Shown here piece by piece: positions 7,035 through 42,761 of a DNA stretch of 64,000 bases (its first letter is position 1; every line of letters starts with the position of its first letter). Made by a program: the position numbers and the translations under genes. The notes below the pieces were generated by a model, which made no database searches, was not told the DNA's origin, and was given only the letters and a program-made list of their open reading frames with translations. Source of the stretch: Candidatus Babeliales bacterium (lineage in GTDB: Bacteria > Babelota > Babeliae > Babelales > JANWKD01); the NCBI GenBank assembly GCA_963722075.1, contig CAVRJM010000001.1, forward strand, positions 1,210,864 to 1,274,863, in the 5' to 3' direction.

Positions 7035-7063
7035 TTGACAAATAAGATAAAAAATTATATGAT
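7035..7063 (+). promoter_or_regulatory. putative sigma70-like promoter of ssrA (TTGACA-N17-TATGAT)
   Basis: The hexamers were read from the sequence about 30 nt upstream of the tmRNA 5' end. AT-rich background makes chance matches likely. Confidence 0.3.
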
Positions 7064-7092: not shown

Positions 7093-7517
7093 GGGGGCGT
7101 ACTGGCTTCGACGTGGTATCGATAGGTTAAAGAGCATGCCAAGTTTTGACTGAAAACTTGTAAAAGAATTGGTCGAAATATAAATGCAAACACTGTTAAA
7201 AGTGATGTTCCTGCAGCTTTATTTGGTTCAATCCAAAATTCAGTATTTGGTGCTCAAGCAGCAGCTTGTGCTTAATTACTGAATAGTTCAGGACACTTGT
7301 TAGCATAACGTGCTTATCAGCGGTGCTAACACGTATTACAAGAGATAAGACTTTCTCGCGTAGATTACATAATTTTGTAGCGAGAAAAAACACTAAATTA
7401 TCCTTACTTTCTATCTGTGTTTTCGAGGTGAAGTAACGGTATATTCGAAAACTGAGCATGGAGTACTTTAAGCTTGACATATTGCGGACATGGGTTCGAT
7501 TCCCATCGCCTCCACCA
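7093..7517 (+). ncRNA. ssrA: tmRNA (SsrA), one-piece
   Basis: The 5' end GGGGGCGTACTGGCTTCGACG pairs with the 3' end ...GGTTCGATTCCCATCGCCTCCACCA (acceptor stem, T-arm and CCA). An internal frame from GCA 7186 to TAA 7273-7275 encodes ANTVKSDVPAALFGSIQNSVFGAQAAACA. The resume codon is uncertain. Confidence 0.85.
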
Positions 7518-7564
7518 GTCTTCGCCCTTCGGGCTACGCCTGGCACGGCCAGTTTCTTTAGCGG

Positions 7565-8671
7565 CTAATAATTATGATCCAATACATCAATATATGGCTT
7601 AAACTTAAATAAACGGCCTCTTTTTTGTTGCGTTTCTTCTACTAAGATCCCATTTGCCATAAAATCAGTAATAATTTTATGAGCCGTATTATACGAAGTA
7701 TTGAGCTGCTTACTGAGTTCTTGAATATTAATAATCGGTATCCTAAAAAAAATTGATAATGCTTTTAACCGTGTACGCATGGTTGCGGTTGACTGTTTTT
7801 CTTGCGTAATTTGATCCCGCAGTGAGTGTTCTAATGAAGCGATATCTTTTGCGCGTCGGTGAGCATCAATGCTTGTTTCTTTGATAGCGGTTAAATAAAA
7901 AAGCACCCATCCTTCAAAATCGCCTTTGGTACGTACTTGATCAAGTCGTTGATAATACTCAAGTTGATTCTTTTTAAAATAATAAGAAAGATACAAAATG
8001 GGTTCATCAAGTAATTTGTTATCAATGAGCATAAGTGCGATTAATAATCTACCAATACGGCCATTGCCATCTAAAAAAGGGTGTATGGTTTCAAATTGAA
8101 CATGGGCAAGACCTGCTTTAATAAGCGGCATAGGTTCTTCGCTGTTAATATACTTTTCTAAATCGGTCATTAAATCTGGAATTAATTGTGGTGGTGGTGG
8201 AATTAGAGCGCCCACGCGTACTGGTTGTTTTCGATAATGACCTGGATTGGCTTTTTCGCCTTCTCCTTTCTCCATCAATGTTTTATGCGCAGCAAGAATT
8301 ACGCGCGAAGAAATAGGCAATCCCTCTTTTTTGACCATATCAACTGCTTTATAAATAGCGGTACAGTAGTTCATCACTAGTTGTGTATCCTTACCTGCCT
8401 TGCCGCCGCTTAATGGTTGAGTAAAAACATCTAAAAGCGTAGTGTGAATTCCTTCAATTGAAGAGGATAAAAGCGCTTCTTTAATGACATATGATTTGAT
8501 AAATCGCTTTGGATCGGGTAAACTATTAGTCATCTCGTTTAGTTTGCCCAATTGAAGCATCGCTTCTCCGTATGCATCTATGATTTTTTCATTTAGTAAT
8601 AATGGCGGTTCGTGGGGCGGTAATGAATCAGGTATAAAATAGCTATCTTCGTAATGGCCCGTTATACGCAT
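7565..8671 (-). CDS. Fic-family protein (AMPylase-type) with N-terminal inhibitory helix and C-terminal wHTH
   Basis: The Fic active-site motif HPFLDGNGRIGR is present. An inhibitory-type motif S-x-x-x-E-G (SSSIEGI) lies upstream of it. The C-terminus IQELSKQLNTSYNTAHKIITDFMANGIL is HTH-like. Confidence 0.9.
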   Translation of the reverse strand: MRITGHYEDSYFIPDSLPPHEPPLLLNEKIIDAYGEAMLQLGKLNEMTNSLPDPKRFIKSYVIKEALLSSSIEGIHTTLLDVFTQPLSGGKAGKDTQLVMNYCTAIYKAVDMVKKEGLPISSRVILAAHKTLMEKGEGEKANPGHYRKQPVRVGALIPPPPQLIPDLMTDLEKYINSEEPMPLIKAGLAHVQFETIHPFLDGNGRIGRLLIALMLIDNKLLDEPILYLSYYFKKNQLEYYQRLDQVRTKGDFEGWVLFYLTAIKETSIDAHRRAKDIASLEHSLRDQITQEKQSTATMRTRLKALSIFFRIPIINIQELSKQLNTSYNTAHKIITDFMANGILVEETQQKRGRLFKFKPYIDVLDHNY

Positions 8672-8879
8672 TTTTATCCCTTTTTACGGCATTTTGTTTC
8701 AATAAATAGTTCTTAATTGAAATAATCATTCAAATTGCTCTCTTTTATTTAATAAAATAATTATACAATGAAATAAAGAATACAAGAAGGTTGATTTTAT
8801 GCGACCAGAATTTCGGATAAATAATTGACTTTTAGAATTGTATAATTTACAATTAGAATATAAAAATATATTGAAATTA

Positions 8880-8990
8880 GGGGGCGTACAGCTTCGACGC
8901 GCTCATGAAAACGGGAAGGGGATGCCGAGTTTCGACTGATTTCATTTTCAATATCACGAGCTTGTAAAAAGAAAAACTCTTGATTCAAAC
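8880..8990 (+). pseudogene. orphan 5' fragment of a second tmRNA gene
   Basis: GGGGGCGTACAGCTTCGACG...GGATGCCGAGTTTCGACTGA...CTTGTAAAAAGAA parallels ssrA positions 7093-7170 (GGGGGCGTACTGGCTTCGACG...GCATGCCAAGTTTTGACTGA...CTTGTAAAAGAA). No tag ORF or 3' tRNA-like half follows. Confidence 0.5.
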
Positions 8991-9038
8991 AAGCTGTTTT
9001 AGGTATACTTAAATTAGGTATGATAAAGGGAGGGTACC

Positions 9039-9425
9039 ATGAGATCACATTTTAATTTTACTTTTCTTTTTTTGCTTTTCATAAATTTCTTTTTTAATAG
9101 CTACTCATTTGATATTGGTGCTGATGATGAAGGGTTTGAAGATATTTTTAGTGAAGATATGGGTGGCAGAGTAAATTTTTCTGAGGATATTATTAATCCT
9201 GAAGTTGGTCCAGACCAAAAAAAGGAAGAAGCGCCACGTCCTATTGAATATCCTGAAGTTCGTTATAAAGTTATTAATCCGGAACAGGAAATTAGTGAGC
9301 CAGCAGTTGATACGTCTATAAAAATTCCTTTAGAAGATGTTCCTGTAGAAGATATTTCTTTAGAAAATGATGAAAGTGATGGAATTGTAACAATTCCTGA
9401 GCTTGAAATTATTGAAGATCAATAA
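9039..9425 (+). CDS. acidic secreted hypothetical protein
   Basis: 128 aa with GGGAGGG upstream. The N-terminus is hydrophobic (FTFLFLLFINFFFNSYSF) and the body is rich in E, D and P. Confidence 0.5.
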   Translation: MRSHFNFTFLFLLFINFFFNSYSFDIGADDEGFEDIFSEDMGGRVNFSEDIINPEVGPDQKKEEAPRPIEYPEVRYKVINPEQEISEPAVDTSIKIPLEDVPVEDISLENDESDGIVTIPELEIIEDQ

Positions 9426-9448
9426 TTGCATAGAGATAAAAATGAAAA

Positions 9449-9484
9449 GGGCCGATATCAGTAATGATATCGGCCCTTTTTTTT
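9449..9484 (+). terminator. rho-independent terminator
   Basis: An 11-bp perfect stem (GGGCCGATATC / GATATCGGCCC) with a 6-nt loop is followed by a T8 run. It lies immediately after ORF 9039..9425. Confidence 0.7.
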
Positions 9485-9491
9485 ATAATGA

Positions 9492-10617
9492 CAGGACTTA
9501 CGCATAAGTAGCACCAATATAACGATCTAATCGAGTGAACATACGATTTAGAGAAGAAGGATTTTTATTCTTAAAGGCTGTGATAGCGGCTTCTGGATTC
9601 TTATAAGAATCCAATTGAGCGATTGAATAAGCTAAGAAGACAGCGCAGATATGATCAAATTGCGTAACTATTTTTCTGGAAAAGCATTCTTGAAGGCCTA
9701 AGCTTTGCTTAGAAGTTCTGATTAATTTTTCTATTCCCCAACGATTTTTATAATTAGTAGCATGTTGCTTTGGAGTGGCTTTATACGTTGCAGCCTGGTA
9801 AACAATAGTTTCATTACCATGCTTATCAATGCGCCTTACGGCAGTAATGTAAAGGGAAAGACCATGCCAAACAATGGTTATAGTGCGAGCCATCTGCCGG
9901 CCCTTTGGGCGTATTTCTTTAATTTCATGCAACTTTCTTTTTTTCCCTTTATATTCAACTACACGGTTACTATGCATACGCACTTCGGTTGCAATATTAT
10001 TTTCTATAGCCCATTTTAAATATTCCACCGAAGCAAATGCACCATCCAAAACTGCAATAATTCTTGCATTGGGAAAAAGTTTTTGAGCTTCGATGATAAA
10101 TAGTTGTACCGTGATTATTAATGCTTGCTTGGGATTCTGATAAAACTCTTTTCCAAATGTAAAAACAGTATTGATTGGCACAGTAAATTTACCATCGGAA
10201 ATGGCACTAATAAGCAATTTATATGCGTTAATGGATCTACCAATTTTTGTGTCAAAAAACCAACACGTACCATCCATCATTTGGGAGTAAATTTTCTTAA
10301 TAGTTGTTTCATCTATGATTACTAATAGCTCTTTTTTATGAGCAAAAATTTGTTGGGCAATTCTTTTTGATTGTTCAAGGCTTTCACGTCCTGATCGCAA
10401 CATGCGATTAACAGTGTCACCACTTTTTTTGATGAGCTTACCCATATTTTCAAAACTTCTTTTTCCAATATTGGTAAGGATTGTAAGTAATGGATAAGTT
10501 GCTATATTATTAACAATGATCATTTAGGTTCTCCTTCGATTTAGTTGTTTTAGGAGAGCCTATTATTTTTTTAAAATACGTCTAGATCATATCTTTAAGT
10601 TATTTGCGCAAGTCCTG
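9492..10617 (-). mobile_element. insertion sequence (IS4 superfamily), copy IS-a
   Basis: Terminal inverted repeats are CAGGACTTACGCA (left) and TGCGCAAGTCCTG (right). They are flanked by the direct repeat TAATGA (9486-9491 and 10618-10623). A single transposase ORF lies inside. Confidence 0.75.
9498..10523 (-). CDS. DDE transposase, IS4 superfamily
   Basis: 341 aa. The signature Y-x2-R-x3-E-x6-K is present as YKNRWGIEKLIRTSK. Confidence 0.85.
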   Translation of the reverse strand: MIIVNNIATYPLLTILTNIGKRSFENMGKLIKKSGDTVNRMLRSGRESLEQSKRIAQQIFAHKKELLVIIDETTIKKIYSQMMDGTCWFFDTKIGRSINAYKLLISAISDGKFTVPINTVFTFGKEFYQNPKQALIITVQLFIIEAQKLFPNARIIAVLDGAFASVEYLKWAIENNIATEVRMHSNRVVEYKGKKRKLHEIKEIRPKGRQMARTITIVWHGLSLYITAVRRIDKHGNETIVYQAATYKATPKQHATNYKNRWGIEKLIRTSKQSLGLQECFSRKIVTQFDHICAVFLAYSIAQLDSYKNPEAAITAFKNKNPSSLNRMFTRLDRYIGATYA

Positions 10618-10688
10618 TAATGAAGCTGCTAGCGCGGATAAAAAACAGGCGAGAGATATAATTATTTCAATTAATTTGACTCATTTTA

Positions 10689-11921
10689 CTTAAGTTTGGA
10701 CAACTTCATTGTTAATAACTCCTAAAGGCATCAAACGCAATATACTTAGCCGAAATATTGTCGCGCAGGTAAAATTGAACTTGGCATATTGCTTTCCTAA
10801 GCTTGTGACGAGTATATGAATAAATCATATTAAGCAGAACATGCAATCCACTGAATTTGAGCCGCTCGCGCTTAGAAAGCACCTGATTACGTACTATTTC
10901 TCCAATCAAAATCAATAAGTTGTAAGCTATTAAGCCGATTAGAAGCAATTTATGAAGATTATTCACCGTTTTGTTCATAAGTTTTGTAAAGCCCAATTTA
11001 TCTTTTATGTCTTTGAAACTTTCTTCAATTTTCATACGTTTTTTATAGTATTTTAAACCTTCGCATGGTTCACAATTTGTAATTACATATAAAGCTTCAT
11101 GCATATTGGATTGCCATTCAGCAGCTATATTTACTTTGACATTTCCCTTATAATAAACTTCTTTCCAATTCTTCTTTGAACCTCGTGTAATAGAAATATC
11201 GATTTTACGGTACTTTTTATCAGTTATATTCACTGTATGCCTTCCAGAATTAACTTTTAAGCGTATTGCATAATGAATTTGACGTGTGGTAAAGAATTTA
11301 ATCATCTCTTCATTAGATAATTCTCGATCAGCAATAATTATCTTATTGCAAAGCAAGTCAAATAATGGCTGTAAGGCATTTTGTAGAAACTTCCATTTGC
11401 CAATATTAGTCTGATCGATTGTTGAAGAGGATATTATATCTGCGAATATCACTTTTGATCGTCCTTTGAATGGTACACTTAATGCCAAAATATTGTACCC
11501 ATGCGTTTTTCCATCTTTTAAATAACCAACATAATTAGTTTTATTAGCGCCTTTTCGAACCATCTCAGTAAAATCCAATAATATCATTTTGCTTGTTGAA
11601 TCAATAAATGTTAAAAGAGCTTCTGACAGCTGCGATACATCTAGCTTATTAAGCATCCTCGTAATCTTTTTATAATTCGTTTCATAATTGCCGGGCAACG
11701 CTGCAGAAATACTGGAAATTCTAAGTCTTCTTGTTTGCTGAAAGCTCCAAATCATTGATCCGATCAATTCTGCGAATTCTATTTTGAATATTTTTAGTGA
11801 ATTAATCATTTTTATGATACAATTTTTAGCAATCATGATTTCTCCTGATTTTGGCGTTTTTTCTTGTTTTTTAAAAAATACACCAGATCAGGAGTTTCTT
11901 CTATTTATGTCCGAACTTCAG
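10689..11921 (-). mobile_element. insertion sequence (IS4 superfamily, different family from IS-a), copy IS-b
   Basis: Imperfect 14-bp terminal inverted repeats are CTTAAGTTTGGACA and TGTCCGAACTTCAG. They are flanked by the direct repeat ATTTTA (10683-10688 and 11922-11927). Confidence 0.7.
10712..11836 (-). CDS. DDE transposase, IS4 superfamily
   Basis: 374 aa. The Y-x2-R-x3-E-x6-K signature is present as YKKRMKIEESFKDIK. Confidence 0.85.
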   Translation of the reverse strand: MIAKNCIIKMINSLKIFKIEFAELIGSMIWSFQQTRRLRISSISAALPGNYETNYKKITRMLNKLDVSQLSEALLTFIDSTSKMILLDFTEMVRKGANKTNYVGYLKDGKTHGYNILALSVPFKGRSKVIFADIISSSTIDQTNIGKWKFLQNALQPLFDLLCNKIIIADRELSNEEMIKFFTTRQIHYAIRLKVNSGRHTVNITDKKYRKIDISITRGSKKNWKEVYYKGNVKVNIAAEWQSNMHEALYVITNCEPCEGLKYYKKRMKIEESFKDIKDKLGFTKLMNKTVNNLHKLLLIGLIAYNLLILIGEIVRNQVLSKRERLKFSGLHVLLNMIYSYTRHKLRKAICQVQFYLRDNISAKYIAFDAFRSY

Positions 11922-11930
11922 ATTTTAATA

Positions 11931-11960
11931 TTGACATTTAAAATAAATTAATTTTAACCT
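11931..11960 (+). promoter_or_regulatory. putative promoter (TTGACA-N18-TAACCT) of fibre paralog 1
   Basis: The block TTGACATTTAAAATAAATTAATTTTAA(C/T)CTATCTTAAT is duplicated upstream of both paralogs (also at 15494). This conservation is the main evidence. Confidence 0.3.
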
Positions 11961-12023
11961 ATCTTAATTCCATTAAAATACAAAAAAGAGAGTATACTTT
12001 TTAAAAAAAGGAAAGAGGGTTAA

Positions 12024-15000
12024 ATGAAGAATAGAAGGCTTAAAGTCTTTATTGCCAGAATGGTGATGGTAGGTTTGCTTGTGCAACATGCTGTGCCGTT
12101 GATGGCTGCCTATGAACAAGATTCAGTAAGCGAACAACCAGCTGAAAACTTACCGATTAAGAATAAAAGAGTAAAATCAGAAGACTCTATAGATCCTCAT
12201 GCGCTCATACCAACTGCCGATACGAGTGAACAAATAGTAGTTATTGATGATGAGCAGTTAGAACATTTTATTGCATCTATAGTAAAAACCGTTGCTAGAA
12301 ATGGAACACAGGAAACATTGTCAGAAGAAATGATGATTTTTTGTGAACAATTACTAACCGGTAAAAAAGAATTTTCAGTTGGATTCTTGTGCAAAGTTGT
12401 TCCTCAATTATTAACGCTCGCAAATAAAAGCATGGAAGAAGAACGTGCCATGCGACCGAACGTTGGGTTTCAAGATGGGTCAATAGTTGGTCCATTACTT
12501 TCTTGCAACTTTGACCAAGTTCTTGCCTTGCTTCATCAAATTTTTAATTTTTTAATGCAATGTTGTGCTACCATAGAATTTGATTTAAATGGTGTGTTTA
12601 CCTTATTAAATACTGATTTTAATGGAACCTTTACCTTTCTTAATGAAATAGAAAATACCTTAACTACGTGCTGTGCTACCATAGAAAATGATTTAAATGG
12701 CGTATTTACCTTATTGAATACAGATTTTAATGGAACTTTTACTTTTCTTAATGAAATAGAGAACACCATAACTACATGCTGTGCAATTGTAGAAAATGAC
12801 TTGAATGGGGTATTTACGTTATTGAATACAGATTTTAATGGAACCTTTACCTTTCTTGATGAAATAGAAAATACCTTAACTACGTGTTGTGCAATTGTAG
12901 AAAATGATTTGAATGGAGTATTTACGGCACTTGCAGCTTTAACAGTAACGGTTACGGTTGATTTTACGGATGTATTCACCACGCTTGATGATATTAATAA
13001 TACACTAACTACCTGTTGCGCAATCGTAGAAAATGATTTAAATGGCGTATTTACCGTACTCAATACTGATTTTAATGGGGTTTTTACCGCATTAGCTGAT
13101 TTATCAGTAACGGTCACGGTTGATTTTACGGATGTATTTACCACACTTGATGAAATTAATAATACATTAACTACTTGCTGTGCGATCGTAGAAAATGATT
13201 TAAATGGTGTCTTTACCGCCCTCAATGATATAAGTACATCGTTTACTGTTGATATTACAAATATATTTACCACACTTGAGGATATTAATAATACATTAAC
13301 TACGTGTTGCGCGATTGTAGAGAATGATTTGAATGGCGTATTTACGGTATTAAATACCGACTTTAATGGTACCTTTACTATGTTAACAGATATATTTAAT
13401 ACCCTGACTACTGGTTGTGCATCAATTACACCTTGTAATCCTGTCTTTATTACTCAGGCAGATGTGGGAACGACTGGTTATACCATTACACAATCTGGAG
13501 TGTACTTTCTAAAAGAAAATATTGTATTTAGTCCAGCAACAATATCTGATGCCATTACTATAGAAGCTGATGATGTGCAATTAAATTTACAATGTTTTAT
13601 TTTATCACAAGGTAATGCGCAACCATCTGTGACTGGTATTGTTGTTGTGCCTGGGGTTAATAGCACTACTATCGAAAATGGTACCATCTCGGGATTTACT
13701 AATAATGGTATTAGTGTTGATCTGAGTGTATCGGATTTTACTCTCTTAAATACTGTTATACGTCGAAATGGCTCTGGTCTATTTTTAGATGGAGTAGTAG
13801 GATCCCCTGTTTCAAATTTTATTGTTAGAAATGTGGAATTTAATTCCAATCTTATTGGGTTGGTTATGACAAATGCTAATAATGGGATTATCCAAGGTTC
13901 AATTTTGTCACGTAACAAAACTGGTATAATGATGACTGATTGCTCTGGCAATGTTATTTCACAATGTGATATTAATCAAACGGTACAAACTGATCAGGAA
14001 AGCGCGTATGGTATAATTGCTCAAGGGGGATCTAATAATCGATTTGAAAGATGTATAATCGATGGCACTTCAACAATGGCAACCACATCAGCATTTGAGG
14101 CAACTGGTTTGTATATTGGGAGTGATGAGCAAGGCGATCTTATTGTGTGGAATCAAATAAGCAATTCAACGACATCTTCAAATGCTTTTGCCTATGGTAT
14201 CCATATGGATTACACCTTTATTGGGACTAGTACAGAAGGCATGCCGAGCATTGTAAGTACTAATACTATTATGAAGCTTGCTTGGTCACCAAGCGATAAA
14301 TACTTAGGAGTCAATTTTGGCTTTTCGGAAAAGATATACGAATTTGACCTTGCTAATGATCAATTTGTACAAGTAGCAAGCGTTACAACACCAAGTGCTA
14401 CTTCTGGATTAAGCTGGTCACCTGATGGATCATTTATAGCTTTTAGCGATCAATCGGGTGCGATAAATATCTATTCATTTGCCGGTACTACACTTAATTT
14501 TGTAACAAGTTTTGATGTTTCACCCAACATCCCACAAGCTGTCGCATGGTCACCTGATGGGCGATTTATAGCGGTAGGGACATCGGCAGGATCTTCTGGT
14601 GAAGAGATTATATTGGAATTTAATGGATCCTCATTAAGTCAAGTAGCAAGTTTTAGTTCGACCTTTGCACCATTATCAATAGCATGGGCTCCTGAGGGAG
14701 ATTTTCTTGCAGTTGGAACGACCGAAAATGTGATAGTGCTTAAATTTGTATCGGGTATTACTTTAACGCAGGTCGCTATTGCTACTCCTTTTGCACCAGT
14801 ACCTGCAGTTGATTGGGCAGTCGATGGAAGATCGATTGTTACTGCTCAAAATACAGGAACGCAAAAAGTGGTTGTATATTCATTTTCAGGAACATCGCTT
14901 ACTATCCAAGCCACGGTTAATAATTCTATAATCATTAATGATGTAAAATGGAGCCCTGACGGCAACTATGTAGTTATGGTTAGTGATACAGGGGGAGTAA

Positions 15001-15419
15001 ATGATACGCATATATTTAAATATACTGGAGTGTCCTTAGTAGATGTAGCTGATATAAATCATGGTGCTAACATAAATAGTGCTTCATGGTCACATGGCGG
15101 TGCCTACATAGCCATTGGGGGACAACCACCATCTAATGAAGCAGAACAAACGCTCAATCCATTTTTATTCCCCGTAAATATTATTCGTAATAATGAAATT
15201 TATAATATTCATGGACCAGCGCTTGCAGCAGGAATTCCAGGATATTCTACTGGCAGAGCGTTAAGTGCTTCATCTAATACCAGTTTAATTATACAAAATA
15301 CTGCATTTAATAATGATGTTAATTATGTTTTTGTTACTAATACATATCAACAATTTTTAGCAAATACACAAAGTATGTTCCCTAACTTATTATCCAACAT
15401 GTTCTTTCCACCGCTATAA
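12024..15419 (+). CDS. secreted repeat-stalk / parallel beta-helix / 7-blade beta-propeller protein (paralog 1)
   Basis: 1131 aa with a signal/anchor (FIARMVMVGLLVQHAVPLMAA). It has 7 vicinal-Cys repeats. Beta-helix-type repeats include NGTISGF..NGISV, VIRRNGSGLFL and ILSRNKTGIMM. Seven AWSPDGxxIA-type blades follow. The C-terminus is shared with paralog 2 (LIIQNTAFNNDVNYVFVTNT). Confidence 0.85.
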   Translation: MKNRRLKVFIARMVMVGLLVQHAVPLMAAYEQDSVSEQPAENLPIKNKRVKSEDSIDPHALIPTADTSEQIVVIDDEQLEHFIASIVKTVARNGTQETLSEEMMIFCEQLLTGKKEFSVGFLCKVVPQLLTLANKSMEEERAMRPNVGFQDGSIVGPLLSCNFDQVLALLHQIFNFLMQCCATIEFDLNGVFTLLNTDFNGTFTFLNEIENTLTTCCATIENDLNGVFTLLNTDFNGTFTFLNEIENTITTCCAIVENDLNGVFTLLNTDFNGTFTFLDEIENTLTTCCAIVENDLNGVFTALAALTVTVTVDFTDVFTTLDDINNTLTTCCAIVENDLNGVFTVLNTDFNGVFTALADLSVTVTVDFTDVFTTLDEINNTLTTCCAIVENDLNGVFTALNDISTSFTVDITNIFTTLEDINNTLTTCCAIVENDLNGVFTVLNTDFNGTFTMLTDIFNTLTTGCASITPCNPVFITQADVGTTGYTITQSGVYFLKENIVFSPATISDAITIEADDVQLNLQCFILSQGNAQPSVTGIVVVPGVNSTTIENGTISGFTNNGISVDLSVSDFTLLNTVIRRNGSGLFLDGVVGSPVSNFIVRNVEFNSNLIGLVMTNANNGIIQGSILSRNKTGIMMTDCSGNVISQCDINQTVQTDQESAYGIIAQGGSNNRFERCIIDGTSTMATTSAFEATGLYIGSDEQGDLIVWNQISNSTTSSNAFAYGIHMDYTFIGTSTEGMPSIVSTNTIMKLAWSPSDKYLGVNFGFSEKIYEFDLANDQFVQVASVTTPSATSGLSWSPDGSFIAFSDQSGAINIYSFAGTTLNFVTSFDVSPNIPQAVAWSPDGRFIAVGTSAGSSGEEIILEFNGSSLSQVASFSSTFAPLSIAWAPEGDFLAVGTTENVIVLKFVSGITLTQVAIATPFAPVPAVDWAVDGRSIVTAQNTGTQKVVVYSFSGTSLTIQATVNNSIIINDVKWSPDGNYVVMVSDTGGVNDTHIFKYTGVSLVDVADINHGANINSASWSHGGAYIAIGGQPPSNEAEQTLNPFLFPVNIIRNNEIYNIHGPALAAGIPGYSTGRALSASSNTSLIIQNTAFNNDVNYVFVTNTYQQFLANTQSMFPNLLSNMFFPPL
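12561..13412 (+). repeat. in-frame tandem repeat array: 7 units of 36/43/54 aa starting with Cys-Cys
   Basis: Units read CCA(T/I)(I/V)ExDLNGVFTxLNTDFNGTFTFLxEIENTLTT. Counted lengths are 36,36,36,43,54,43,36 aa (284 aa total), built from roughly 11-aa sub-repeats. Confidence 0.85.
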
Positions 15420-15438
15420 TATATGAGGTAGTTAGCAA

Positions 15439-15475
15439 GGGTCTCATCTATTAATGCATGAGACCCTTTTTATTT
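15439..15475 (+). terminator. rho-independent terminator
   Basis: The stem GGGTCTCAT/ATGAGACCC is followed by a T-rich tract directly after the stop of paralog 1. Confidence 0.65.
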
Positions 15476-15493
15476 TTATAAAAATTTAATGTA

Positions 15494-15523
15494 TTGACAT
15501 TTAAAATAAATTAATTTTAATCT
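15494..15523 (+). promoter_or_regulatory. putative promoter (TTGACA-N18-TAATCT) of fibre paralog 2
   Basis: This is a duplicate of the block at 11931. The downstream RBS AAAGGAGAGAGGG is also conserved. Confidence 0.3.
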
Positions 15524-15581
15524 ATCTTAATCCAACACAAAAAAGAGAGTATATTTTTTAAAAAAAAGGAGAGAGGGTTAA

Positions 15582-18500
15582 ATGAAGAATAGAAAGCTTA
15601 AAATCTTTATTGCCAGAATGGTAATGGTAGGTTTGCTTGTGCAACATGCTGTGCCGTTGATGGCTGCCTATGAACAAGATTCAGTAAGCGAACAACCAGC
15701 TGAAATAACCTTATCAGTTCAAGGTAAAAGAGTAAAATCAGAAGATTCTATAAATTCTAATGTACTCATACCAACTGCCGAGACGAGTGAACAAATAGTA
15801 GTTATTGATGATGAGCAGTTAGAACATTTTATTGCATCTATAGTAAAAACCGTTGCTAGAAATGGAACACAGGAAACATTGTCAGAAGAAATGATGATTT
15901 TTTGTGAACAATTACTAACCGGTAAAAAAGAATTTTCAGTTGGATTCTTGTGCAAAGTTGTTCCTCAATTATTAACGCTCGCAAATAAAAGCATGGAAGA
16001 AGAGCGTGCCATGCGACCGAACGTTGGGTTTCAAGATGGGTCAATAGTAGGCCCATTACTTTCTTGCAACTTTGACCAAGTTCTTGCCTTGCTTCATCAA
16101 ATTTTTAATTTTTTAATGCAATGTTGTGCTACCATAGAATTTGATTTAAATGGTGTGTTTACCTTATTAAATACTGATTTTAATGGAACTTTTACTTTTC
16201 TTAATGAAATAGAAAATACCTTAACTACATGCTGTGCAATTGTAGAAAATGACTTGAATGGGGTATTTACGTTATTGAATACAGATTTTAACGGAACCTT
16301 TACCTTTCTTGATGAAATAGAAAATACCTTAACTACGTGTTGTGCAATTGTAGAAAATGATTTGAATGGAGTATTTACGGCACTTGCAGCTTTAACAGTA
16401 ACGGTTACGGTTGATTTTACGGATGTATTCACCACGCTTGATGATATTAATAATACACTAACTACCTGTTGCGCAATCGTAGAAAATGATTTAAATGGCG
16501 TATTTACCGTACTCAATACTGATTTTAATGGGGTTTTTACCGCATTAGCTGATTTATCAGTAACGGTCACGGTTGATTTTACGGATGTATTTACCACACT
16601 TGATGAAATTAATAATACATTAACTACTTGTTGCGCGATTGTAGAGAATGATTTAAATGGTGTCTTTACCGCCCTCAAGGATATAGGTATAACGTTTACT
16701 GTTGATATAACAAATATATTTACCACACTTGAAGATATTAATAATACGTTAACTACGTGTTGTGCCAATATTGAATTCGATTTTAATGGCATATTTACCA
16801 CAGTTACCGATATAATTGCATCAGTATCGACTGATTTTACGCTAGCCCTTACAACGCTAATAGAAATTAATAATACCTTAACGGAATGCTGCGCAAATAT
16901 TACCAATGAATTTAATGGTACCTTTACCGTGCTCAATGATATTGAAAATACCCTTACAACATGCTGTGCAACCGTAGAAACTGATTTGAACGGGGTATTT
17001 ACGTTATTGAATACAGATTTTAACGGGACCTTTACCTTTCTTAATGAAATAGAGAATACCTTAACTACGTGCTGTGCAATTGTAGAAACTGATTTGAATG
17101 GGGTATTTACGCTATTAAATACCGATTTCAATGGTACCTTTACGGTACTTGCAAGTTTAATGCCTGCCTGCCCTAACACAGTAATTACACAATCGGCGGT
17201 AAATGCGAGTGGTGGCACCTATACCATTTCTAATCCTGGTAATTATTCTTTATCTTCAGATATTACCTCAACAGCAGCAACCATTATTGTTATTGATGCT
17301 GATCAAGTAACGTTAGATCTGTGTGGACGTTCAATTATTGGGGCCGGCGTAGATAGTGGTGATCAAATTGGAATTACCGTAGAAGCGGGCCTTTCAGATA
17401 TTGCAATCACGAATGGTGATATAACTAATATGAGTATGGACGGTATTTTTGTAAATAGCGGCGTTTCCGATTTAAGCATAAGCAATATTGCGGTAAATAA
17501 TACCGGAAGATCAGGTATTAATCTTGAAGGAAACAGTGAATCATTAATTACCGAAGTAGTTATTAATAACTGCACAATTTCTTTAACGGCAACGGGGGCT
17601 ACAGGAATTGCAGGGCTAGTTTTAAATAATTGTGATACGGTAGCGGTGCAAGGTGGAAATTTTGATCGTAATGGATCACTAACTAATGTTGCAGGAATAT
17701 TAGTTAATGCATGTAATGATTGTGTAATCGATGCAGCCACTATGAATCTTAATACCAGTACCGGGTTATTATTAGTAGATTCTCAAAATTCAGTAGTCAA
17801 TAATGTGGTAATATCAAGAAACACGGGAGCAGGTATCGATCTTTCAGGAAGCTCATTTAATACATTTAATAATTGCGCTATAACGCGTACTGTTGCAACT
17901 GCTAATAACAGTGCTTATGGTATTAGAGCATTAGGCGGTGGTAGCAATAGATTTGAAAATTGTATAATTGATGGTACCTCGACTGCCGCAACAAGTTCAG
18001 ATTTTGAAGCAACAGGTATCTTGATTGGTAGTGACGAACAAGCGGATATTATTATAAATAATCAGGTCTCTAATTCTACAGCTTCATCATCAGGATTACC
18101 ATTTGGCATTCATATGGATTATACCTTTACTGCATTAAGTAATTCAAGCCTTCCATCAATTACTATTGGCACTACTATTGATAAAGTAGCATGGTCTCCT
18201 AATGATAAATATTTGGCAGTAAGTTTTGGAACTTTGTCTACAACCATTGCAGTTTATGCATTTGATAGAGATATCTTAGATTTAGTACAAGTCGCTACAG
18301 TTGCTCTTACTAACGCATGTCAAGATTTAGCGTGGTCCCCTGATGGCACTTATTTAGCAACGGTTGAGCCAAATGGTGTTAATGGTTTATTGCGAGTGTT
18401 CTTATTTAATGGTGTAAGTCTAAATCAAATAGCAACAGCAGCAGTAGGAACCGATGGTGGGGTTCCTGAATCGGTAAGTTGGAATGCTAATGGTAGATTT

Positions 18501-19367
18501 ATAGCGGTTGTTGGAAATGCGACTTCATTAACGCGTGTAAATGCAGACCCTACCGTTTATGTTTTTGAGTTTACTGGTTCTTTACTTAATCAAGTTGCAA
18601 CTACTGGTGTAGCAGGTACCGTAAATGCTGTTGCATGGGGCCCGCAAAATAATTATCTTGCGGTGGGTGCAATAGGGCTTTTAGATGTATTTAAATTTAC
18701 TGGTGGAACCACCTTAACGCTTGCTGCATCATTGTCCCTTGGTACTGATTCAGCCAATTCTGTTGATTGGGCGGTTGATGGTCGAACCTTGGTAATAAGT
18801 AATACTACTGGAATCTCAGTTGTTGAATTTACTGGAGTTGCGTTAACGCCAATAACAAGCGTATCAACTGGTGTTCAAGTGAATGATGCCCACTGGAGTT
18901 CTGATGGGCAATATGTGGTTATTGGGCAAAATGAAATAGCGGGAGGCGATGTAAAAGCGTATCTATATAATGGTACTTCTTTAACGCTTGAAAGTTCATA
19001 TACGCATGGAGCTAATGTCAGTTCAGTTGCTTGGTCTCGTGGTGGTGAATTTATTGCTATCGGTGGAAATGTATCTGGTGGTAAAACGGAAGAAACACTT
19101 TTTGGGTTAGTGTTTCCTGCTAATACCATTATAAGAAATAATGAAGTTTCAGGAGTGAGCGGGCCAGCGCTTGCAAGTGGAACTCCTGGGTTTTCAACGG
19201 GTCGCGGGATTAGTGCATCTTCAAATTCGAATTTAATTATACAAAATACGGCATTTAATAATGATGTTAATTACGTATTTGTGACGAATACCTTTTCCCA
19301 ATTTATTGCAAATACAGCAAGTCAATTCCCAAGTAATTTAGCTAATTTATCATTCCCTCCATTGTAA
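15582..19367 (+). CDS. secreted repeat-stalk / parallel beta-helix / 7-blade beta-propeller protein (paralog 2)
   Basis: 1261 aa. After residue ~66 the N-terminus up to the repeat array is identical to paralog 1. It has 9 Cys-Cys repeats, a longer beta-helix, seven AWSPDG-like blades, and a conserved C-terminus. Confidence 0.85.
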   Translation: MKNRKLKIFIARMVMVGLLVQHAVPLMAAYEQDSVSEQPAEITLSVQGKRVKSEDSINSNVLIPTAETSEQIVVIDDEQLEHFIASIVKTVARNGTQETLSEEMMIFCEQLLTGKKEFSVGFLCKVVPQLLTLANKSMEEERAMRPNVGFQDGSIVGPLLSCNFDQVLALLHQIFNFLMQCCATIEFDLNGVFTLLNTDFNGTFTFLNEIENTLTTCCAIVENDLNGVFTLLNTDFNGTFTFLDEIENTLTTCCAIVENDLNGVFTALAALTVTVTVDFTDVFTTLDDINNTLTTCCAIVENDLNGVFTVLNTDFNGVFTALADLSVTVTVDFTDVFTTLDEINNTLTTCCAIVENDLNGVFTALKDIGITFTVDITNIFTTLEDINNTLTTCCANIEFDFNGIFTTVTDIIASVSTDFTLALTTLIEINNTLTECCANITNEFNGTFTVLNDIENTLTTCCATVETDLNGVFTLLNTDFNGTFTFLNEIENTLTTCCAIVETDLNGVFTLLNTDFNGTFTVLASLMPACPNTVITQSAVNASGGTYTISNPGNYSLSSDITSTAATIIVIDADQVTLDLCGRSIIGAGVDSGDQIGITVEAGLSDIAITNGDITNMSMDGIFVNSGVSDLSISNIAVNNTGRSGINLEGNSESLITEVVINNCTISLTATGATGIAGLVLNNCDTVAVQGGNFDRNGSLTNVAGILVNACNDCVIDAATMNLNTSTGLLLVDSQNSVVNNVVISRNTGAGIDLSGSSFNTFNNCAITRTVATANNSAYGIRALGGGSNRFENCIIDGTSTAATSSDFEATGILIGSDEQADIIINNQVSNSTASSSGLPFGIHMDYTFTALSNSSLPSITIGTTIDKVAWSPNDKYLAVSFGTLSTTIAVYAFDRDILDLVQVATVALTNACQDLAWSPDGTYLATVEPNGVNGLLRVFLFNGVSLNQIATAAVGTDGGVPESVSWNANGRFIAVVGNATSLTRVNADPTVYVFEFTGSLLNQVATTGVAGTVNAVAWGPQNNYLAVGAIGLLDVFKFTGGTTLTLAASLSLGTDSANSVDWAVDGRTLVISNTTGISVVEFTGVALTPITSVSTGVQVNDAHWSSDGQYVVIGQNEIAGGDVKAYLYNGTSLTLESSYTHGANVSSVAWSRGGEFIAIGGNVSGGKTEETLFGLVFPANTIIRNNEVSGVSGPALASGTPGFSTGRGISASSNSNLIIQNTAFNNDVNYVFVTNTFSQFIANTASQFPSNLANLSFPPL
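16123..17150 (+). repeat. in-frame tandem repeat array: 9 Cys-Cys units (25-54 aa)
   Basis: The unit family is the same as at 12561-13412. Some blocks are nearly identical at DNA level to paralog 1. Units 6-9 have no counterpart there. Confidence 0.85.
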
Positions 19368-19386
19368 TATAATAAGCTAAAATCAA

Positions 19387-19416
19387 AGCCGAGTAGTTTT
19401 CTACTCGGCTTTTTTA
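19387..19416 (+). terminator. rho-independent terminator
   Basis: A 10-bp stem (AGCCGAGTAG/CTACTCGGCT) with loop TTTT is followed by T5, after the stop of paralog 2. Confidence 0.7.
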
Positions 19417-19419
19417 TTG

Positions 19420-19550
19420 CCCATACCGCTTTCTATTTGTAATGCACCAACATTGATGAAAGAATTAGGGTATGGAGCGGGGACCAAAAGTATACCAGTA
19501 AGGATTTATTACTTGAAAAATTAAAAGGTAAAAAGTATCTTAACCTATAA
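19420..19550 (+). pseudogene. rarA: 3'-terminal remnant of rarA/mgsA (replication-associated recombination protein A), frameshifted
   Basis: Read by eye. PIPLSICNAPTLMKELGYGAG in one frame and DLLLEKLKGKKYLNL* in the next match the conserved RarA C-terminus (vP.hLrNAPT.LMK.lGYG.gY ... YLP..L.G..YY.P). No upstream part of the gene is present. Confidence 0.55.
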
Positions 19551-19657
19551 AATCTTGTTTTTATCCTTAAATAATTGCTATTATTAAATTAAATAATAAG
19601 TACGCGAATTCGATGAAAGAGTATGATGAAATAACTGATGATCAGACAAAAACCACT

Positions 19658-19752
19658 GTCATTCTGAGATCTTGCTTTGCAAGATCGTAAGAATCCAGTT
19701 ATAAAGATTTTTCATTTTATTCACTGGATCCTTACGCTGCGCTCAGGATGAC
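19658..19752. repeat. GC-rich palindromic intergenic element (copy A)
   Basis: GTCATTCTGAG...GAATCCAG, an AT-rich spacer, then CTGGATCCTTACGCTGCGCTCAGGATGAC. The two arms are inverted repeats of each other. Confidence 0.7.
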
Positions 19753-19831
19753 ATATGTAAAGTAGCATTGTTATTAGTTAAATAATTAATATTAAATTGT
19801 CGAAACTCACCTTATAAAAAAAGGAGAAAAA

Positions 19832-20236
19832 ATGGTTAATATAAGAAATTTTTTACTTTTAATAATGATAACTTTTATTGGTTTAATAAGCGCTGTTGCT
19901 AAATATAAGGTTCCGGTAATAACGGAAAAAGAAGTAATGGCTATTTTAGCACCGATTGAAGTACCAGTGGAAACAGCTCAGAAAGTTAAATGTTATTGTT
20001 CATTTAAATGTGGGCCACGAGATGTTAAGCCTGATGATACGCCATTTTATGATGAAGAAGTTGGTGTCTGTTTTTGCAAAAAACGTGACCAAGAAGCCTA
20101 TGCGCAACCAGTTCATGAATGTCATAAAAAAAAGAATGTTGATTTTCCTAATTCATGTGGTAGAAAGCAGTTCTTTAGAACGCCTAAAAATATTCCGGCT
20201 ACTACTTCTTCAACTACTGTTCCGGCAAATAAGTAA
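19832..20236 (+). CDS. small secreted Cys-rich protein, hypothetical
   Basis: 134 aa with AGGAGA upstream and a signal-like N-terminus. Eight Cys residues occur in KCYCSFKCG...GVCFCKK...HECH...NSCG. Confidence 0.6.
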   Translation: MVNIRNFLLLIMITFIGLISAVAKYKVPVITEKEVMAILAPIEVPVETAQKVKCYCSFKCGPRDVKPDDTPFYDEEVGVCFCKKRDQEAYAQPVHECHKKKNVDFPNSCGRKQFFRTPKNIPATTSSTTVPANK

Positions 20237-20249
20237 TAATTATCAAAAT

Positions 20250-20341
20250 GTCATCCCGAGCGAACGCGTGGGGATCCAGGTTCCATTAAAAATGTTTTGA
20301 TTTATTTATTCACTGGATCCTTACACTCCGTTCAGGATGAC
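20250..20341. repeat. GC-rich palindromic intergenic element (copy B)
   Basis: GTCATCCCGAGCGAACGCGTGGGGATCCAG, a spacer, then CTGGATCCTTACACTCCGTTCAGGATGAC. It has the same layout and orientation as copy A. Confidence 0.7.
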
Positions 20342-20572
20342 ATTCATAGGTTTCATTAGATTATAATTATTCTTATTAATTAATGAGCTAAAAAAGATTA
20401 ATTATTCTATTTCTTAGTCAAAACTTATCTTGATCGAATGTACGTCTAATTAGTTAAGAATCAAATATTTATTAATTCTTAAACACTTTTCAATGAAGTC
20501 TTGATTTTTTAAATTCCCATTTCTTAAGGTGGGCATAGAAAAATTTAAGATATCAATTGTTAAGGTGTTTAT

Positions 20573-26500: not shown

Positions 26501-29500
26501 CCAACAACGGTAGCTGCAACATATACCGTAAGCTTGCCTGCAAATGCGCCAACAACAGGCCAAGTATTGCAAGCAACATCACCAACAACACTCACCTGGG
26601 CATCGGTAGGCGGCTCACCAGCAATAGCAGAAACCTATTATGTTTCCCTTGCTGGTAGCGATAGTAATGATGGGTCTTTCTCGGCGCCATTTAGAACGGT
26701 AACTCATGCGGTGAACGTAGCTAATGGCGTAGCTAGTCTTGCTAATCCTATTGTTATTAATGTGGGTGCCGGTAATTTTGTTGAAAATAATACCGGTGGG
26801 CCAATTATTATTTCTGCTGATGGCATTAGTATTGTGGGGGCTACGCTTGTAGCTACTACCATTATACCAGCAAGTAGTACTGTCGATTTATTTCATATAA
26901 CAACAGGCAATGTTGAATTTCAAAATATATCATTGACGACACCGTTTCCTGGCTCTACAGCAAGTGCCGTTGTTATTACTATTTCGTCGGGGACGCCCCA
27001 ATTTAATACTATAACAGTGGGGCAATTCCAAATGGGATTTGACTTAAGCAGCTCAGTAATAACAAACATTCCTACTGTGGTATTTGAAAATATGCAATGT
27101 GCCGGTAATGGTACGAATATTATAGCTAATAATATCAATGCGGTGATTAAAAATTCTGTATTCCAAGGGCCATTATTCTTTGGGAGTGCAGCAAATAACG
27201 GCATTATATTAACAGGTGCAAACACACAAGCATTAATTTTAAGTTGCGCATTAAAATCATTTGACAATGCGCTACAAATTACCAACGCTGCACAAGCACG
27301 AATTCTCAGTGTTGATATTGAAAGCTCTACCACAGGCATTTTGTGCAATGGTGTATCAGATGCTTCAATTATTGGTTGTAATTTCTTTATCAATAATGCA
27401 AATTCGATCAACGTAAGTGTCTCAGGAGCAGGTACCAATATTACAGTAGAAGGTTCTCACTTTGAAGGATCTCTTGCGGGTGATACGCCATTGGGTACTG
27501 CACTTCAAGTAATTAATGGAGCAGTACTTTCAGTTGATTCTTGTGCTATCGAAAATGTTGCGGTAGGAATTCAATGTGGTAATCCGGGTGATACGGTTAC
27601 CACATTCTTAGAAGCAAGCGGTGTCGTTCTATCTGGCTGTACGGTAGATATTCAGCAAAATGGTGCTTCAAAACTTAATTTTTTTAGCGGCGTAGTTGAT
27701 ATCGATAAAACATTTATAAACGACCCAACCAATGTGAGTATTGCTGCATTTAATGATCAATCAGAATTAGTAATAGGGTCAGGAGCTAATACTGAACACC
27801 TGCTTTATGAGGTGCTTAATGGTCAAGTGCCAAGACCAAGTCTTACCTATGAGCCGGATTATTATGGAAAAATGGGTACGGTATTTGTAAATAGTAATAC
27901 GGGACAAACATTTAATGCAACGCAAGCACAAAGTGATAATGCTGCCTATTTTGTAATTACCGGCGATAACACTAAAGAAGCAGGACTTAATTTATTTTCA
28001 GATACTGCAAATTTTGGTGATCCAGATAATGTACGCGGGTGGGGAATCATAAAAACAGGGACATCTGCCGATTTAGCATTTACCTATACTAATAATGATT
28101 CGTCAGGACAAGCATTACGCGGTTCTAATACCGTGATGCAGCTCAATGGCTTTGATAATCAAGTAGAATTTCCTATTGCAACGAATGCACCATTGCCAAC
28201 TAATACGGTAGCAAAATTGATATGGGCTGGAGACACCGATTTATATCGCTCAACTACAGCAACGTTAGCAACGGATAGTAATTTTGTGGTTGCGCAGAAC
28301 GTAACCATTTCAAGTTTAACACCGGCTGGCGTAGTGCATAATGATAATACTGGTTTGCTTTCGACATCATTAATTGTAGACGCCGATATTAGCGCAAGTG
28401 CAAATATTGCTGATACAAAATTGGCAACGATTAGCACGCCCGGTAAAGTAGCAAATTCCGCTACTACAGCAACCAGTTCAGATGTGCCAAATACTATTGT
28501 GCTTCGCGATGGGTTAGGAAATTTTGAAACCAACATGATTACCATTGATGGAACTGTTAGTAATCCAACTGATGTTGCAACAAAGCAATATGTGGATAAT
28601 GCAGTAACAACCGGATTTGTGGTAAAGACAGCTGCTTTAGTGACCAGCACCGTTGATGTTGCCATTAGTGGGTTACAAACAGTTGATGGTGTGATGCTGA
28701 CCACCAGCGATCGAGTATTATTAGTTGGGCAAACAGATGGCGTAGAAAACGGATTATGGCTCGCTGAAGTAGGAAATTGGATGCGCCCAACTGATTTTTC
28801 TAGTGGTACTTCGGCTGGTAATTCATATGTACTTACCCTTTCAGGTACCGTAAATGGCGGGTCCAGTTGGATTTGTATTACGCCAACATCAATTATAGAT
28901 ACTAATACGATAGAATTTACTCAATTTGCATTAGCAAGCCAAACTACCGGCGCCAATGTGGGAGCAGGTACGGGGCAAGTGTTTCAAAGTAAAACCGGAA
29001 ATGTGTTGAATTTCAGAACACTTCTTGCCGGAACTCATATGGTAATAACAACTGACCCAAATGATGTAGCAATCGCAACTGATGCAACAAGCGCGAATAC
29101 ACCAAATACGCTTGTGGCGCGTGATGCCTCGGGAAATTTTGCTGCCGCGACTATTACGGCAAATTTATCGGGTAATGCTTCAACCGCAACATCCGCCACC
29201 AATTTTACCGGGGCGCTTGCTGGTGATGTTACTGGAACACAAGGAGCAACGGTGGTAAATTTTGTGGGTGGGCAAAGTGCAGCCAATGTTTCTTCAGCAA
29301 CGGTAGCAGCAAATGCAGCAACCAATTCTAATACACCAAATACGATCGTATTGCGCGATGGATCTGGTAATTTCTCAGCAGGCACGATTACGGCAAATCT
29401 CACCGGAAATGTTACCGGGAACTTAACTGGTAATGCCACAACTGCAACTAATGCAACGACGGCGGTAAATTTCAGCGGTTCGCTAAATGGAGATGTAACC

Positions 29501-32287: not shown

Positions 32288-32399
32288 TATGATCCCCTTT
32301 TTATTTGCCCTAAAATCTCTATTAGTATATTTCTTCTGATGAGATAAAATCAGCAATTTAAAAAGAAGAGGTATATTTTTCGTTTGTAGCTTTATTTTA

Positions 32400-33125: not shown

Positions 33126-33249
33126 GATATCACCATTAAAAAAAACTAATTATTATTTCAGTATAGTTTCTATAAGAAGAAAAGAAAAATGGGTGTACTA
33201 TTATGGATACAAAATAATTGTTTAAAAAAATAATAAAAAGGATTGAGAC

Positions 33250-34757: not shown

Positions 34758-34845
34758 CATTCTATTTAAACCTTTTGAATTCGATACTTTAAATGCGTTT
34801 ACACCCTGGTACTAATCATTAATTATTTGCAAAAATGAGTTTTGT

Positions 34846-42741: not shown

Positions 42742-42761
42742 AGTTATGCCCCGTTATAGAG

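Follow-up and report, generated by a model that had tools for sequence, protein, structure and literature searches.

The tmRNA gene, ssrA, is a classical integration site of genomic islands, and integration at ssrA displaces 3' fragments of the gene. Islands and prophages integrated at the tmRNA gene have reportedly been described by Williams in 'Traffic at the tmRNA gene', with CP4-57 of E. coli and VPI of Vibrio cholerae as examples. Pseudogene relics and reductive decay are features of host-dependent bacteria such as Rickettsia and Mycobacterium leprae, while the Rickettsia palindromic elements and the Correia elements of Neisseria are dispersed intergenic repeats of ~100 bp that form hairpins. 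Among surface proteins, BclA of Bacillus is an example of a C1q-headed bacterial fibre. Here, we analyze a region downstream of ssrA in a Dependentiae genome and compare it with each of these systems.

The window, the whole 64-kb stretch of DNA that was analyzed, has a G+C content of ~33 % and comes from a 1.42-Mb genome of the Dependentiae (Babeliales); the best named relatives of its Pgi protein are from Candidatus Babeliales/Dependentiae. An initial annotation had proposed that accessory DNA begins downstream of ssrA, that the fibre locus within it was probably acquired or rearranged, and that this DNA replaced most of an ancestral rarA gene. All of the listed features were found at or near where that annotation had placed them (Table 1). 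Our reading of them is that 8.7-31.8 kb is a Dependentiae-specific surface-protein locus, not an island at ssrA, which already lay beside pgi-zwf-gnd in the common ancestor of the window and its relative L126 and has evolved in place; we give this reading a probability of about 70 %. What remains is the ordinary plasticity of a small, IS-bearing, host-dependent genome, plus two small relics. The proposed switch from housekeeping to accessory genes stands as far as the accessory content is concerned, but the boundary is not sharp. Housekeeping genes and genes for secreted ankyrin, TPR and hypothetical proteins lie on both sides of the region, three secreted ankyrin proteins being encoded upstream of ssrA, and mobile or accessory DNA outside the region also includes a third IS, with the third transposase of the window at 49.2 kb, and further palindromic repeats.

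Table 1. Features of the region, in window coordinates
Feature	Position	Strand	Description
ssrA (tmRNA gene), resident	7093..7517	+	ARAGORN; Rfam RF00023, 149.5 bits
Fic-family gene, convergent with ssrA	7565..8671	-	Pfam Fic and Fic_N
Left edge of L126 collinearity	8751..8835	.	Matches L126 3440-3517; sensitive blastn E = 3e-5; common AATAAAATAATTAT motif
ssrA 5' copy, 62 nt	8881..8942	+	From alignments
Acidic secreted ORF, 128 aa	9039..9425	+	pI 4.05, 32 D+E, hydrophobic N-terminus
IS-A, 1126 bp	9492..10617	-	IS701/IS4-like DDE transposase, 341 aa; 13-bp IRs; DDE_Tnp_1
IS-B, 1233 bp	10689..11921	-	IS4-like DDE transposase, 374 aa; 14-bp IRs; DDE_Tnp_1
par1, surface protein	12024..15419	+	Signal/TM segment, ~36-aa CC repeats, beta-helix, beta-propeller (Pfam)
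par2, ortholog of the single L126 par gene (62 % aa)	15582..19367	+	CC repeats, beta-helix, beta-propeller (Pfam)
rarA (mgsA) 3' stub, 134 nt	19417..19550	+	Last ~44 codons, one frameshift near 19480, one codon missing
Palindromic element E1	19657..19757	.	Long hairpin, fold z = -6.8
Cys-rich secreted ORF, 134 aa, 7 Cys	19832..20236	+	L126 homologue, 65.5 % aa identity
Palindromic element E2, E1 family	20247..20345	.	Long hairpin, fold z = -3.5
Giant fibre gene, 3738 aa	20573..31789	+	C-terminal C1q domain (Pfam); tail fibre phrog_5342
Right anchor	31844..34563		Membrane protein (-), macro-domain gene (-), pgi (+), then zwf, gnd, cyclase; block kept in L126, L002 and L004

The evidence that carries this reading comes from synteny with one informative relative, L126 (ENA ERZ27237304), which was found through par2 and shares 74 % identity in Pgi, 81 % in Zwf and 91 % in the cyclase; when genome contigs were scanned with the single protein Pgi, no relative emerged. 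Direct alignment shows L126 to be collinear with the window from ~8750 to 43204, in the order acidic ORF, par, Cys ORF, a short frameshifted C1q fibre gene, membrane protein, pgi, zwf, gnd, cyclase, sod, fasciclin, murI and two ndk genes. Leftward of the acidic ORF stand tRNA-Lys and tRNA-Glu genes and unrelated genes, and the 4.4 kb between par and the end of the L126 contig contain neither ssrA nor Fic. The synteny break thus falls between the start of Fic and about 8750, and Fic (1.1 kb) is the only gene that separates ssrA from the collinear block. Because the surface-protein locus is collinear in L126 without ssrA and Fic, it must predate the split between the two lineages and is not tied to ssrA. 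The initial annotation had suggested asking whether the fibre genes are absent, and rarA intact, at the orthologous site of related genomes; the locus is present there and collinear, with tRNA genes on its left, which contradicts a recent acquisition at ssrA, and this site has no rarA. Compared with L126, the window alone has a ~145-bp stretch containing the ssrA copy, IS-A, IS-B, par1, the rarA stub, E1, E2, most of the giant gene, the macro gene and two hypothetical genes. We infer the direction of each of these indels; the macro gene, for example, was probably lost by L126, since the distant L004 has one.

More distant Dependentiae place the block elsewhere. Relatives found through Pgi (60-62 % identity) have the macro-pgi-zwf-gnd-cyclase block in common with the window; in L002 and L004, ruvA and a Na/Ala symporter gene precede pgi, and the par homologue is ~100 kb away. 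Since this arrangement differs, the block either came to lie beside pgi or disappeared from that position before the lineages of the window and L126 diverged. An older translocation or acquisition of the block is therefore possible, with other genes preceding pgi in L002 and L004, and the claim of an 'acquired or rearranged' locus can be kept only at that deeper level, where the block has moved relative to L002 and L004; it fails between the window and L126. Distant par homologues (L127-L130) lie in non-syntenic contexts without rarA.

Composition and a search for integration machinery lead in the same direction. GC3 is 0.29 for fic, 0.24 for par1, 0.235 for par2 and 0.27 for the giant gene, compared with 0.20-0.30 for the flanks; in synonymous codon usage, the same four genes correlate with pooled housekeeping genes at r = 0.92-0.97, as highly as housekeeping genes do among themselves. 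The comparison of composition and codon usage with the flanks, which the initial annotation had also put forward, thus returns a native region that is indistinguishable from its housekeeping flanks in both measures. The dinucleotide signature of the par genes plus the giant gene does depart from the flanks, a point against our reading, though one confounded by repetitive, biased amino-acid composition. As the initial annotation had noted, no integrase is present: Pfam detected no recombinase or integrase domain in the ORFs of the region or in six-frame translations of its three largest intergenic gaps, a search with low sensitivity to very short remnants. An att-type query covering the 3'-terminal 90 nt of ssrA and the next 40 nt gave no exact repeat of the ssrA 3' end of at least 12 nt in the 64 kb, and none of 20-24 nt with up to 3 mismatches; the only ssrA-like piece besides the resident gene is a 5' fragment. 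What marks an island at the tmRNA gene, namely an integrase, an attR-type repeat, deviant composition and absence from the orthologous site, is thus lacking here, with 8.7-31.8 kb present in L126.

The resident ssrA, the only tmRNA gene found by ARAGORN and Rfam in the window, is flanked by a promoter-like site at 7035-7063 and a terminator-like hairpin at 7540-7552, both from a promoter/terminator scan. The convergent Fic gene matches the phage protein family phrog_5978 (3.5e-76), with at most 32 % identity to phage Fic/MloA proteins and NCBIfam scores under the cutoff; its GC3 (0.29) and codon usage (r = 0.92) are both native. The tmRNA 5' fragment reported beyond Fic is real and corresponds to the first 62 nt of the gene, with GGGGGCGTAC-AGCTTCGACG followed at the correct spacing by ATGCCGAGTTTCGACTGA. 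Identity to the 5' end of the resident gene is 73 %, and similarity stops after nt 62, within pseudoknot 1. Both share a GACTGA loop that is absent in other Dependentiae, and the copy has the TTGAAA that stands just upstream of G1 in all sampled Dependentiae ssrA genes. Moreover, a sigma70-like site (8825-8853, 10/12), the second-best such site in 6.9-12.1 kb, lies about as far from G1 of the copy as the resident promoter lies from its own G1. Rfam makes no call on the copy, which has no complete tRNA-like domain or tag reading frame and is thus not a functional tmRNA gene. It sits in the ~145-bp stretch without counterpart in L126, with the match to L126 3440-3517 on one side and the conserved acidic-ORF leader on the other. 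Its 5' origin and its place within the collinear block rule it out as an attR-like boundary of an island; the simplest reading would be an old local partial duplication. A scan of genomes with an ssrA 5' pattern returned mostly other phyla and four Dependentiae loci (L011, L016, L017 and L076), which were too distant; ARAGORN found a tmRNA in three of the four, and the two that were read (L016 and L017) have no Fic or rarA gene downstream of ssrA. A metagenome search with a clade-specific ssrA pattern gave no match.

The acidic ORF is followed by a bidirectional terminator hairpin (9444-9481) and has a homologue in L126 (3570-3920). Between it and par1 lie the two insertion sequences, whose anatomy can be read directly from their ends. 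The IRs of IS-A (CAGGACTTACGCA / CAGGACTTGCGCA) match at 12/13 bases and those of IS-B (CTTAAGTTTGGACA / CTGAAGTTCGGACA) at 12/14, and each element is flanked by an exact 6-bp TSD: TAATGA at 9486-9491 and 10618-10623 for IS-A, and ATTTTA at 10683-10688 and 11922-11927 for IS-B. Both therefore have the DDE transposase, terminal IRs and flanking TSD that define the IS4 superfamily. The best NCBIfam matches are IS701 for IS-A and IS4 for IS-B, at scores far below the cutoffs (87 vs 250 bits and 75 vs 152 bits). The ends of IS-A are supported by a ~99 % identical copy on another contig (L132), in which the limits of homology coincide exactly, and the source genome has at least three further transposase variants of this element. 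The insertion point of IS-B lies directly upstream of the promoter of par1 (TTGACA); par2 and the L126 par gene have this promoter region conserved upstream, both without an IS. With the TSDs exact, both elements absent from the orthologous site of L126, and IS-A multicopy at ~99 %, the proposal that these are recent simple insertions is well borne out. The L132 copy of IS-A has no TSD, which we take as uninformative, as a recombinant or chimeric short contig could explain it.

The two genes that follow had been described as fibre paralogs. They are indeed paralogs (54 % aa identity), but Pfam shows a beta-helix plus a beta-propeller in each, and they are not homologous to fibres. A search with par2 collected a family of 44 proteins, nearly all named members of which are from Dependentiae/Babeliales, with the genes often in tandem. 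The par1 protein shares 39 % aa identity with that of L126, against 62 % for par2. At the DNA level, the upstream 100 bp plus the first 720 nt of par1 and par2 are 90-97 % identical, and the last 1.5 kb are 59-68 % identical. This contrast of near-identical 5' and divergent 3' parts argues for old paralogs with gene conversion at the 5' end, and since par1 and par2 differ more in their 3' parts than par2 differs from the L126 gene, the duplication predates the window-L126 split.

Just beyond the par2 terminator hairpin (19387-19415) lies the stretch assigned to rarA, and the assignment as a genuine frameshifted 3' remnant proved sound. By tblastn its frames are 19417-19482 and 19479-19541, with the stop at 19548-19550. 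A phmmer search of 1.84 billion proteins with the frameshift-corrected 44-mer gave 35 proteins at E <= 0.001 (best 1.2e-9, 76 % identity), with alignments that span both halves of the query and reach the C-termini of the matched proteins; all four of the matches scanned (P0173, P0178, P0189 and P0195) contain MgsA_C (Pfam), and the three longer ones AAA_assoc_2 as well. Identity to residues 340-369 of the intact Dependentiae RarA of L133 is 73 %. Other searches were weaker: E. coli RarA (query sequence checked against 3pvs) gave a best tblastn match in the window at 19423-19479 with E = 0.05, phmmer against the PDB joined the stub to the C-terminal domain of H. influenzae RarA with E = 0.28, Pfam did not detect it, and a word-indexed search with the 43-aa stub gave no candidates. 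Without an AAA+ ATPase domain or an intact frame, the stub is not a functional gene. As had been claimed, no 5' part accompanies it: tblastn with the E. coli, H. influenzae and full Dependentiae RarA proteins found no other piece in the 64 kb.

Did the DNA to the left of the stub replace the rest of rarA, as had been concluded from its presence? It did not, because that DNA, par2 and its terminator, is orthologous to the par gene and terminator of L126. There, the par terminator joins directly to the sequence that in the window comes after the stop codon of the stub; the stub is absent from this orthologous spacer, so that the difference at this spot is an indel of the stub itself. The stub is also too well preserved for the age of the window-L126 split, and so at least one recent event at this spot is needed, which we count against our preferred reading. 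A possible clue comes from L133, a 1.52-Mb Dependentiae genome reached through the match P0174. There, downstream of an intact rarA, comes a DUF1016/YhcG-like nuclease gene in the opposite orientation, and after it the 3' end of rarA recurs as a 131-bp direct repeat. Overall identity between the two 3' ends is 94 %, with no difference in the final 92 nt, and the first codon of the repeat, the L of LPIPL, is also the one with which the window stub opens. The match P0175 was considered as a second stub and rejected as a frameshift-fragmented rarA in a noisy assembly.

The palindromes said to bracket the Cys-rich ORF are both present. The arms of E1 have the consensus TGTCATCCYGAGCG..GCGTAAGGATCCAGT, and related arms occur at ~34.7, 42.1 and 47.6 kb of the window and in L127. 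Both elements are absent from the orthologous spacers of L126, and they combine a stable long hairpin, several related copies and presence or absence between relatives, the traits of REP/MITE-like repeats. A scan of metagenomes with the Cys-rich ORF returned one distant, non-syntenic locus only.

The giant gene deserves the name of fibre gene given to it, with its C1q domain and its match to the tail-fibre family. It is laid out as three ~720-aa modules, about ten ~85-aa repeats and the C-terminal C1q, and the DNA identity of the internal repeats (67-80 %) would fit amplification in place. The L126 counterpart (8328-9543) occupies this position too and shares the start context; it is a frameshifted C1q fibre version of ~400 aa. 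The G+C content of 42 % was considered as a foreign sign and rejected: since the excess is located in codon position 2 (0.517), it points to amino-acid composition.

How do other explanations fare against these findings? The initial view was that Fic, the IS elements, the par genes and the giant fibre gene arrived on a genomic island at ssrA, now degraded, that most of rarA was overwritten in the process and that the integrase has been lost since. Such an island would suit a region that adjoins a classical integration site, carries accessory content and gene relics, and contains a block that is not beside pgi in distant relatives. Nonetheless, it is already largely refuted by the position of the block beside pgi in L126 without ssrA, and it is difficult to reconcile with native codon usage, with the lack of an att repeat or integrase remnant, and with the orthology of par2 and its terminator. 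Moreover, what integration at ssrA leaves behind is a 3' fragment, but the nearby relic comes from the 5' end of the gene. We consider this explanation very improbable. A narrower version would regard the ssrA-Fic segment (7.5-8.9 kb) alone as a decayed mobile module, with the ssrA copy as the record of a rearrangement or partial duplication linked to its arrival and with the surface-protein locus ancestral. The synteny break exactly between Fic and the collinear block speaks for this version, as do the match of this type of Fic to a phage protein family, the ssrA-type promoter of a copy that is missing from L126, and a degraded resolvase-like ORF on the corresponding side of L126. Yet Fic has native codon usage and low identity to phage Fic proteins, the copy lies inside the collinear block rather than on its edge and has diverged considerably from the resident gene, and the window holds no recombinase, all of which make a mobile module unlikely.

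For the rarA stub, the alternative to a remnant of a gene destroyed in place is that an element inserting at the 3' end of rarA displaced or duplicated this piece, which a rearrangement then parted from rarA. The rarA-nuclease-repeat arrangement of L133, with the start codon in common, and the good preservation of the stub argue for such an origin. However, the comparison involves a single genome, the window has no nuclease gene or rarA near the stub, the common boundary could simply mark where conservation begins, and the left edge of the stub lies directly against the par2 terminator, which is equally what a plain deletion would leave. We hold this origin to be a tentative possibility, one that we lean against. 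A bolder pair of proposals is that the last ~44 codons of rarA are a recurrent insertion site in Dependentiae and that, in addition, the ssrA promoter and first 62 nt were copied into the leader of the acidic gene, which they may drive or regulate. That both hold is distinctly doubtful. If they did, an undescribed element that targets the 3' end of rarA and a co-option of a tmRNA-derived promoter and leader would both adjoin a host-attachment locus of Dependentiae, in which the C1q fibre has about ten times the length of its counterpart in a relative.

The preferred reading, a surface-protein locus inherited beside pgi, would account for the region by a series of modest events. Two active IS would have inserted into the spacer that separates the acidic ORF from par1, and two small palindromic elements would have come to flank the Cys-rich ORF. 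The two old par paralogs would have been retained, with 5' ends homogenised by gene conversion, and the fibre gene would owe its length to internal repeats. The abutment of ssrA and Fic on the locus at a synteny breakpoint would reflect rearrangement, not the ends of an integrated island. Finally, we infer the events behind the 62-nt ssrA copy and the 134-nt rarA stub, which would be small relics of local duplication, insertion or deletion. The general lesson is that adjacency to ssrA, IS elements and a gene stub do not together make an island, and one moderately close relative sufficed to show that the 'fibre' locus is inherited. The conserved, fast-evolving locus (acidic, par beta-helix/propeller, Cys-rich and C1q fibre proteins) is thus a host-attachment candidate; in this small genome, both the IS elements and the small palindromic repeats are currently active, and the boundary common to two rarA 3' ends is a modest lead to an insertion site in a housekeeping gene.

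In comparison with the ssrA islands CP4-57 and VPI, the region is alike in having accessory genes directly downstream of ssrA and an ssrA-derived fragment nearby. It differs in lacking a tyrosine integrase and a repeat of the ssrA 3' end, and in its native codon usage; here the fragment is a 5' piece with a promoter-like site, inside a block that L126 has without ssrA. IS-A and IS-B resemble IS4/IS701-family elements in their single DDE_Tnp_1 transposase, short terminal IRs and short TSDs, and IS-A in being multicopy, but their transposases are divergent, unnamed members that score far under the NCBIfam family cutoffs. Elements E1 and E2 resemble REP/MITE-like repeats, such as the Rickettsia palindromic elements and the Correia elements, as ~100-bp, dispersed intergenic hairpins that are variably present between relatives; their arm sequence differs, and no transposase partner was identified. 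The giant gene is like phage tail fibres and C1q-headed bacterial fibres such as BclA in its repetitive shaft, C-terminal C1q/TNF-like globular domain and PHROG tail-fibre match, whereas it is chromosomal, encodes a signal peptide and lies in a conserved Dependentiae locus with beta-helix/propeller proteins and no surrounding phage genes. The closest parallel for the relics is the reductive decay of Rickettsia and M. leprae, with short frameshifted gene ends between intact genes, a split neighbour gene (gnd) and lineage-specific deletions relative to a relative; the rarA stub departs from that pattern in starting at the codon of the duplicated rarA 3' end of L133, which hints at a site-specific process, not a random deletion.

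The arrangement of rarA at L133, a locus of another member of the Dependentiae, bears on the frameshifted rarA stub (the last ~44 codons of the gene, 19417-19550). There, rarA is intact; next to it comes a nuclease gene, and beyond that the 3' end of rarA is repeated in direct orientation (Table). Sequence comparison reveals that the first codon of this repeat is also the first codon of the stub in the window. Judged from the L133 arrangement, the 3' end of rarA may be an insertion hotspot.

The paralogous surface-protein genes par1 and par2 are 90-97 % identical over 100 bp of upstream sequence and the first ~720 nt (11924-12745 versus 15485-16300), whereas identity in their 3' halves is just 59-68 %. 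This difference indicates that the promoter and N-terminal region of these old paralogs underwent gene conversion. The giant fibre gene (20573-31789, 3738 aa) corresponds in L126, a closer relative, to a frameshifted gene of only ~400 aa (L126:8328-9543), which shares both the start context and the C1q end with the window gene. Sequence comparison suggests that the gap in length reflects either a massive expansion of the window gene or a collapse of the L126 gene, although the short version may also result from repeat collapse in the L126 assembly.

A third DDE transposase gene lies outside the ssrA-adjacent region (7093-31789), and so IS elements are not restricted to the ssrA side; at the DNA level, this gene has no similarity to the two insertion sequences IS-A and IS-B. 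Sequences related to the arms of the palindromic elements E1 and E2 constitute a dispersed family of small repeats, also present in a distant Dependentiae genome (L127); besides partial arm copies, it includes a repeat pair of 74 nt, 89 % identical.

Features of the window and of related Dependentiae loci
Feature	Coordinates	Remarks
Intact rarA; nuclease gene; rarA repeat	L133:7604-10228	DUF1016/YhcG-like nuclease (minus strand); 131-bp direct repeat of rarA 3' end
Third DDE transposase	49216-50247	DDE_Tnp_1, DDE_5
E1/E2-related sequences and repeat pair	~34699-34771, ~42125-42170, ~47565-47637; L127:3662-3692	GTCRTCCYGAGCG... arm, partial copies
80-nt direct repeat pair	57172-57251, 58020-58099	92.5 % identical; AT-rich intergenic area
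Palindromes	47850-47902, 57900-57951	Noted with 80-nt pair
gnd-like gene	36252-37162	Two ORFs by frameshift (36252-36650, 36650-37162)
ndk tandem paralogs (two)	42217-43204	One with hydrophobic N-terminal extension
Short ORF	L126:1793-1981	Resolvase-like N-terminus, MKAIIIARVSTEEQ...; in degraded region adjoining tRNA-Glu, tRNA-Lys

To the right of the region, the gnd-like gene is split in the window and intact in L126 (303 aa); the split means that the window copy has become a pseudogene or that the sequence contains an error. The tandem ndk pair is also kept in L126.

In L126, the resolvase-like ORF occupies the site at which the window carries Fic and ssrA. The tag peptide of the resident tmRNA (7093-7517) is predicted by ARAGORN to be long, ending in ...AQAAACA, and differs strongly from those predicted for other Dependentiae tmRNAs (L011, L016, L017). 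A TTGAC -35 box and TTTGAAA directly upstream of G1 are common to all Dependentiae ssrA loci sampled (the window and these three).
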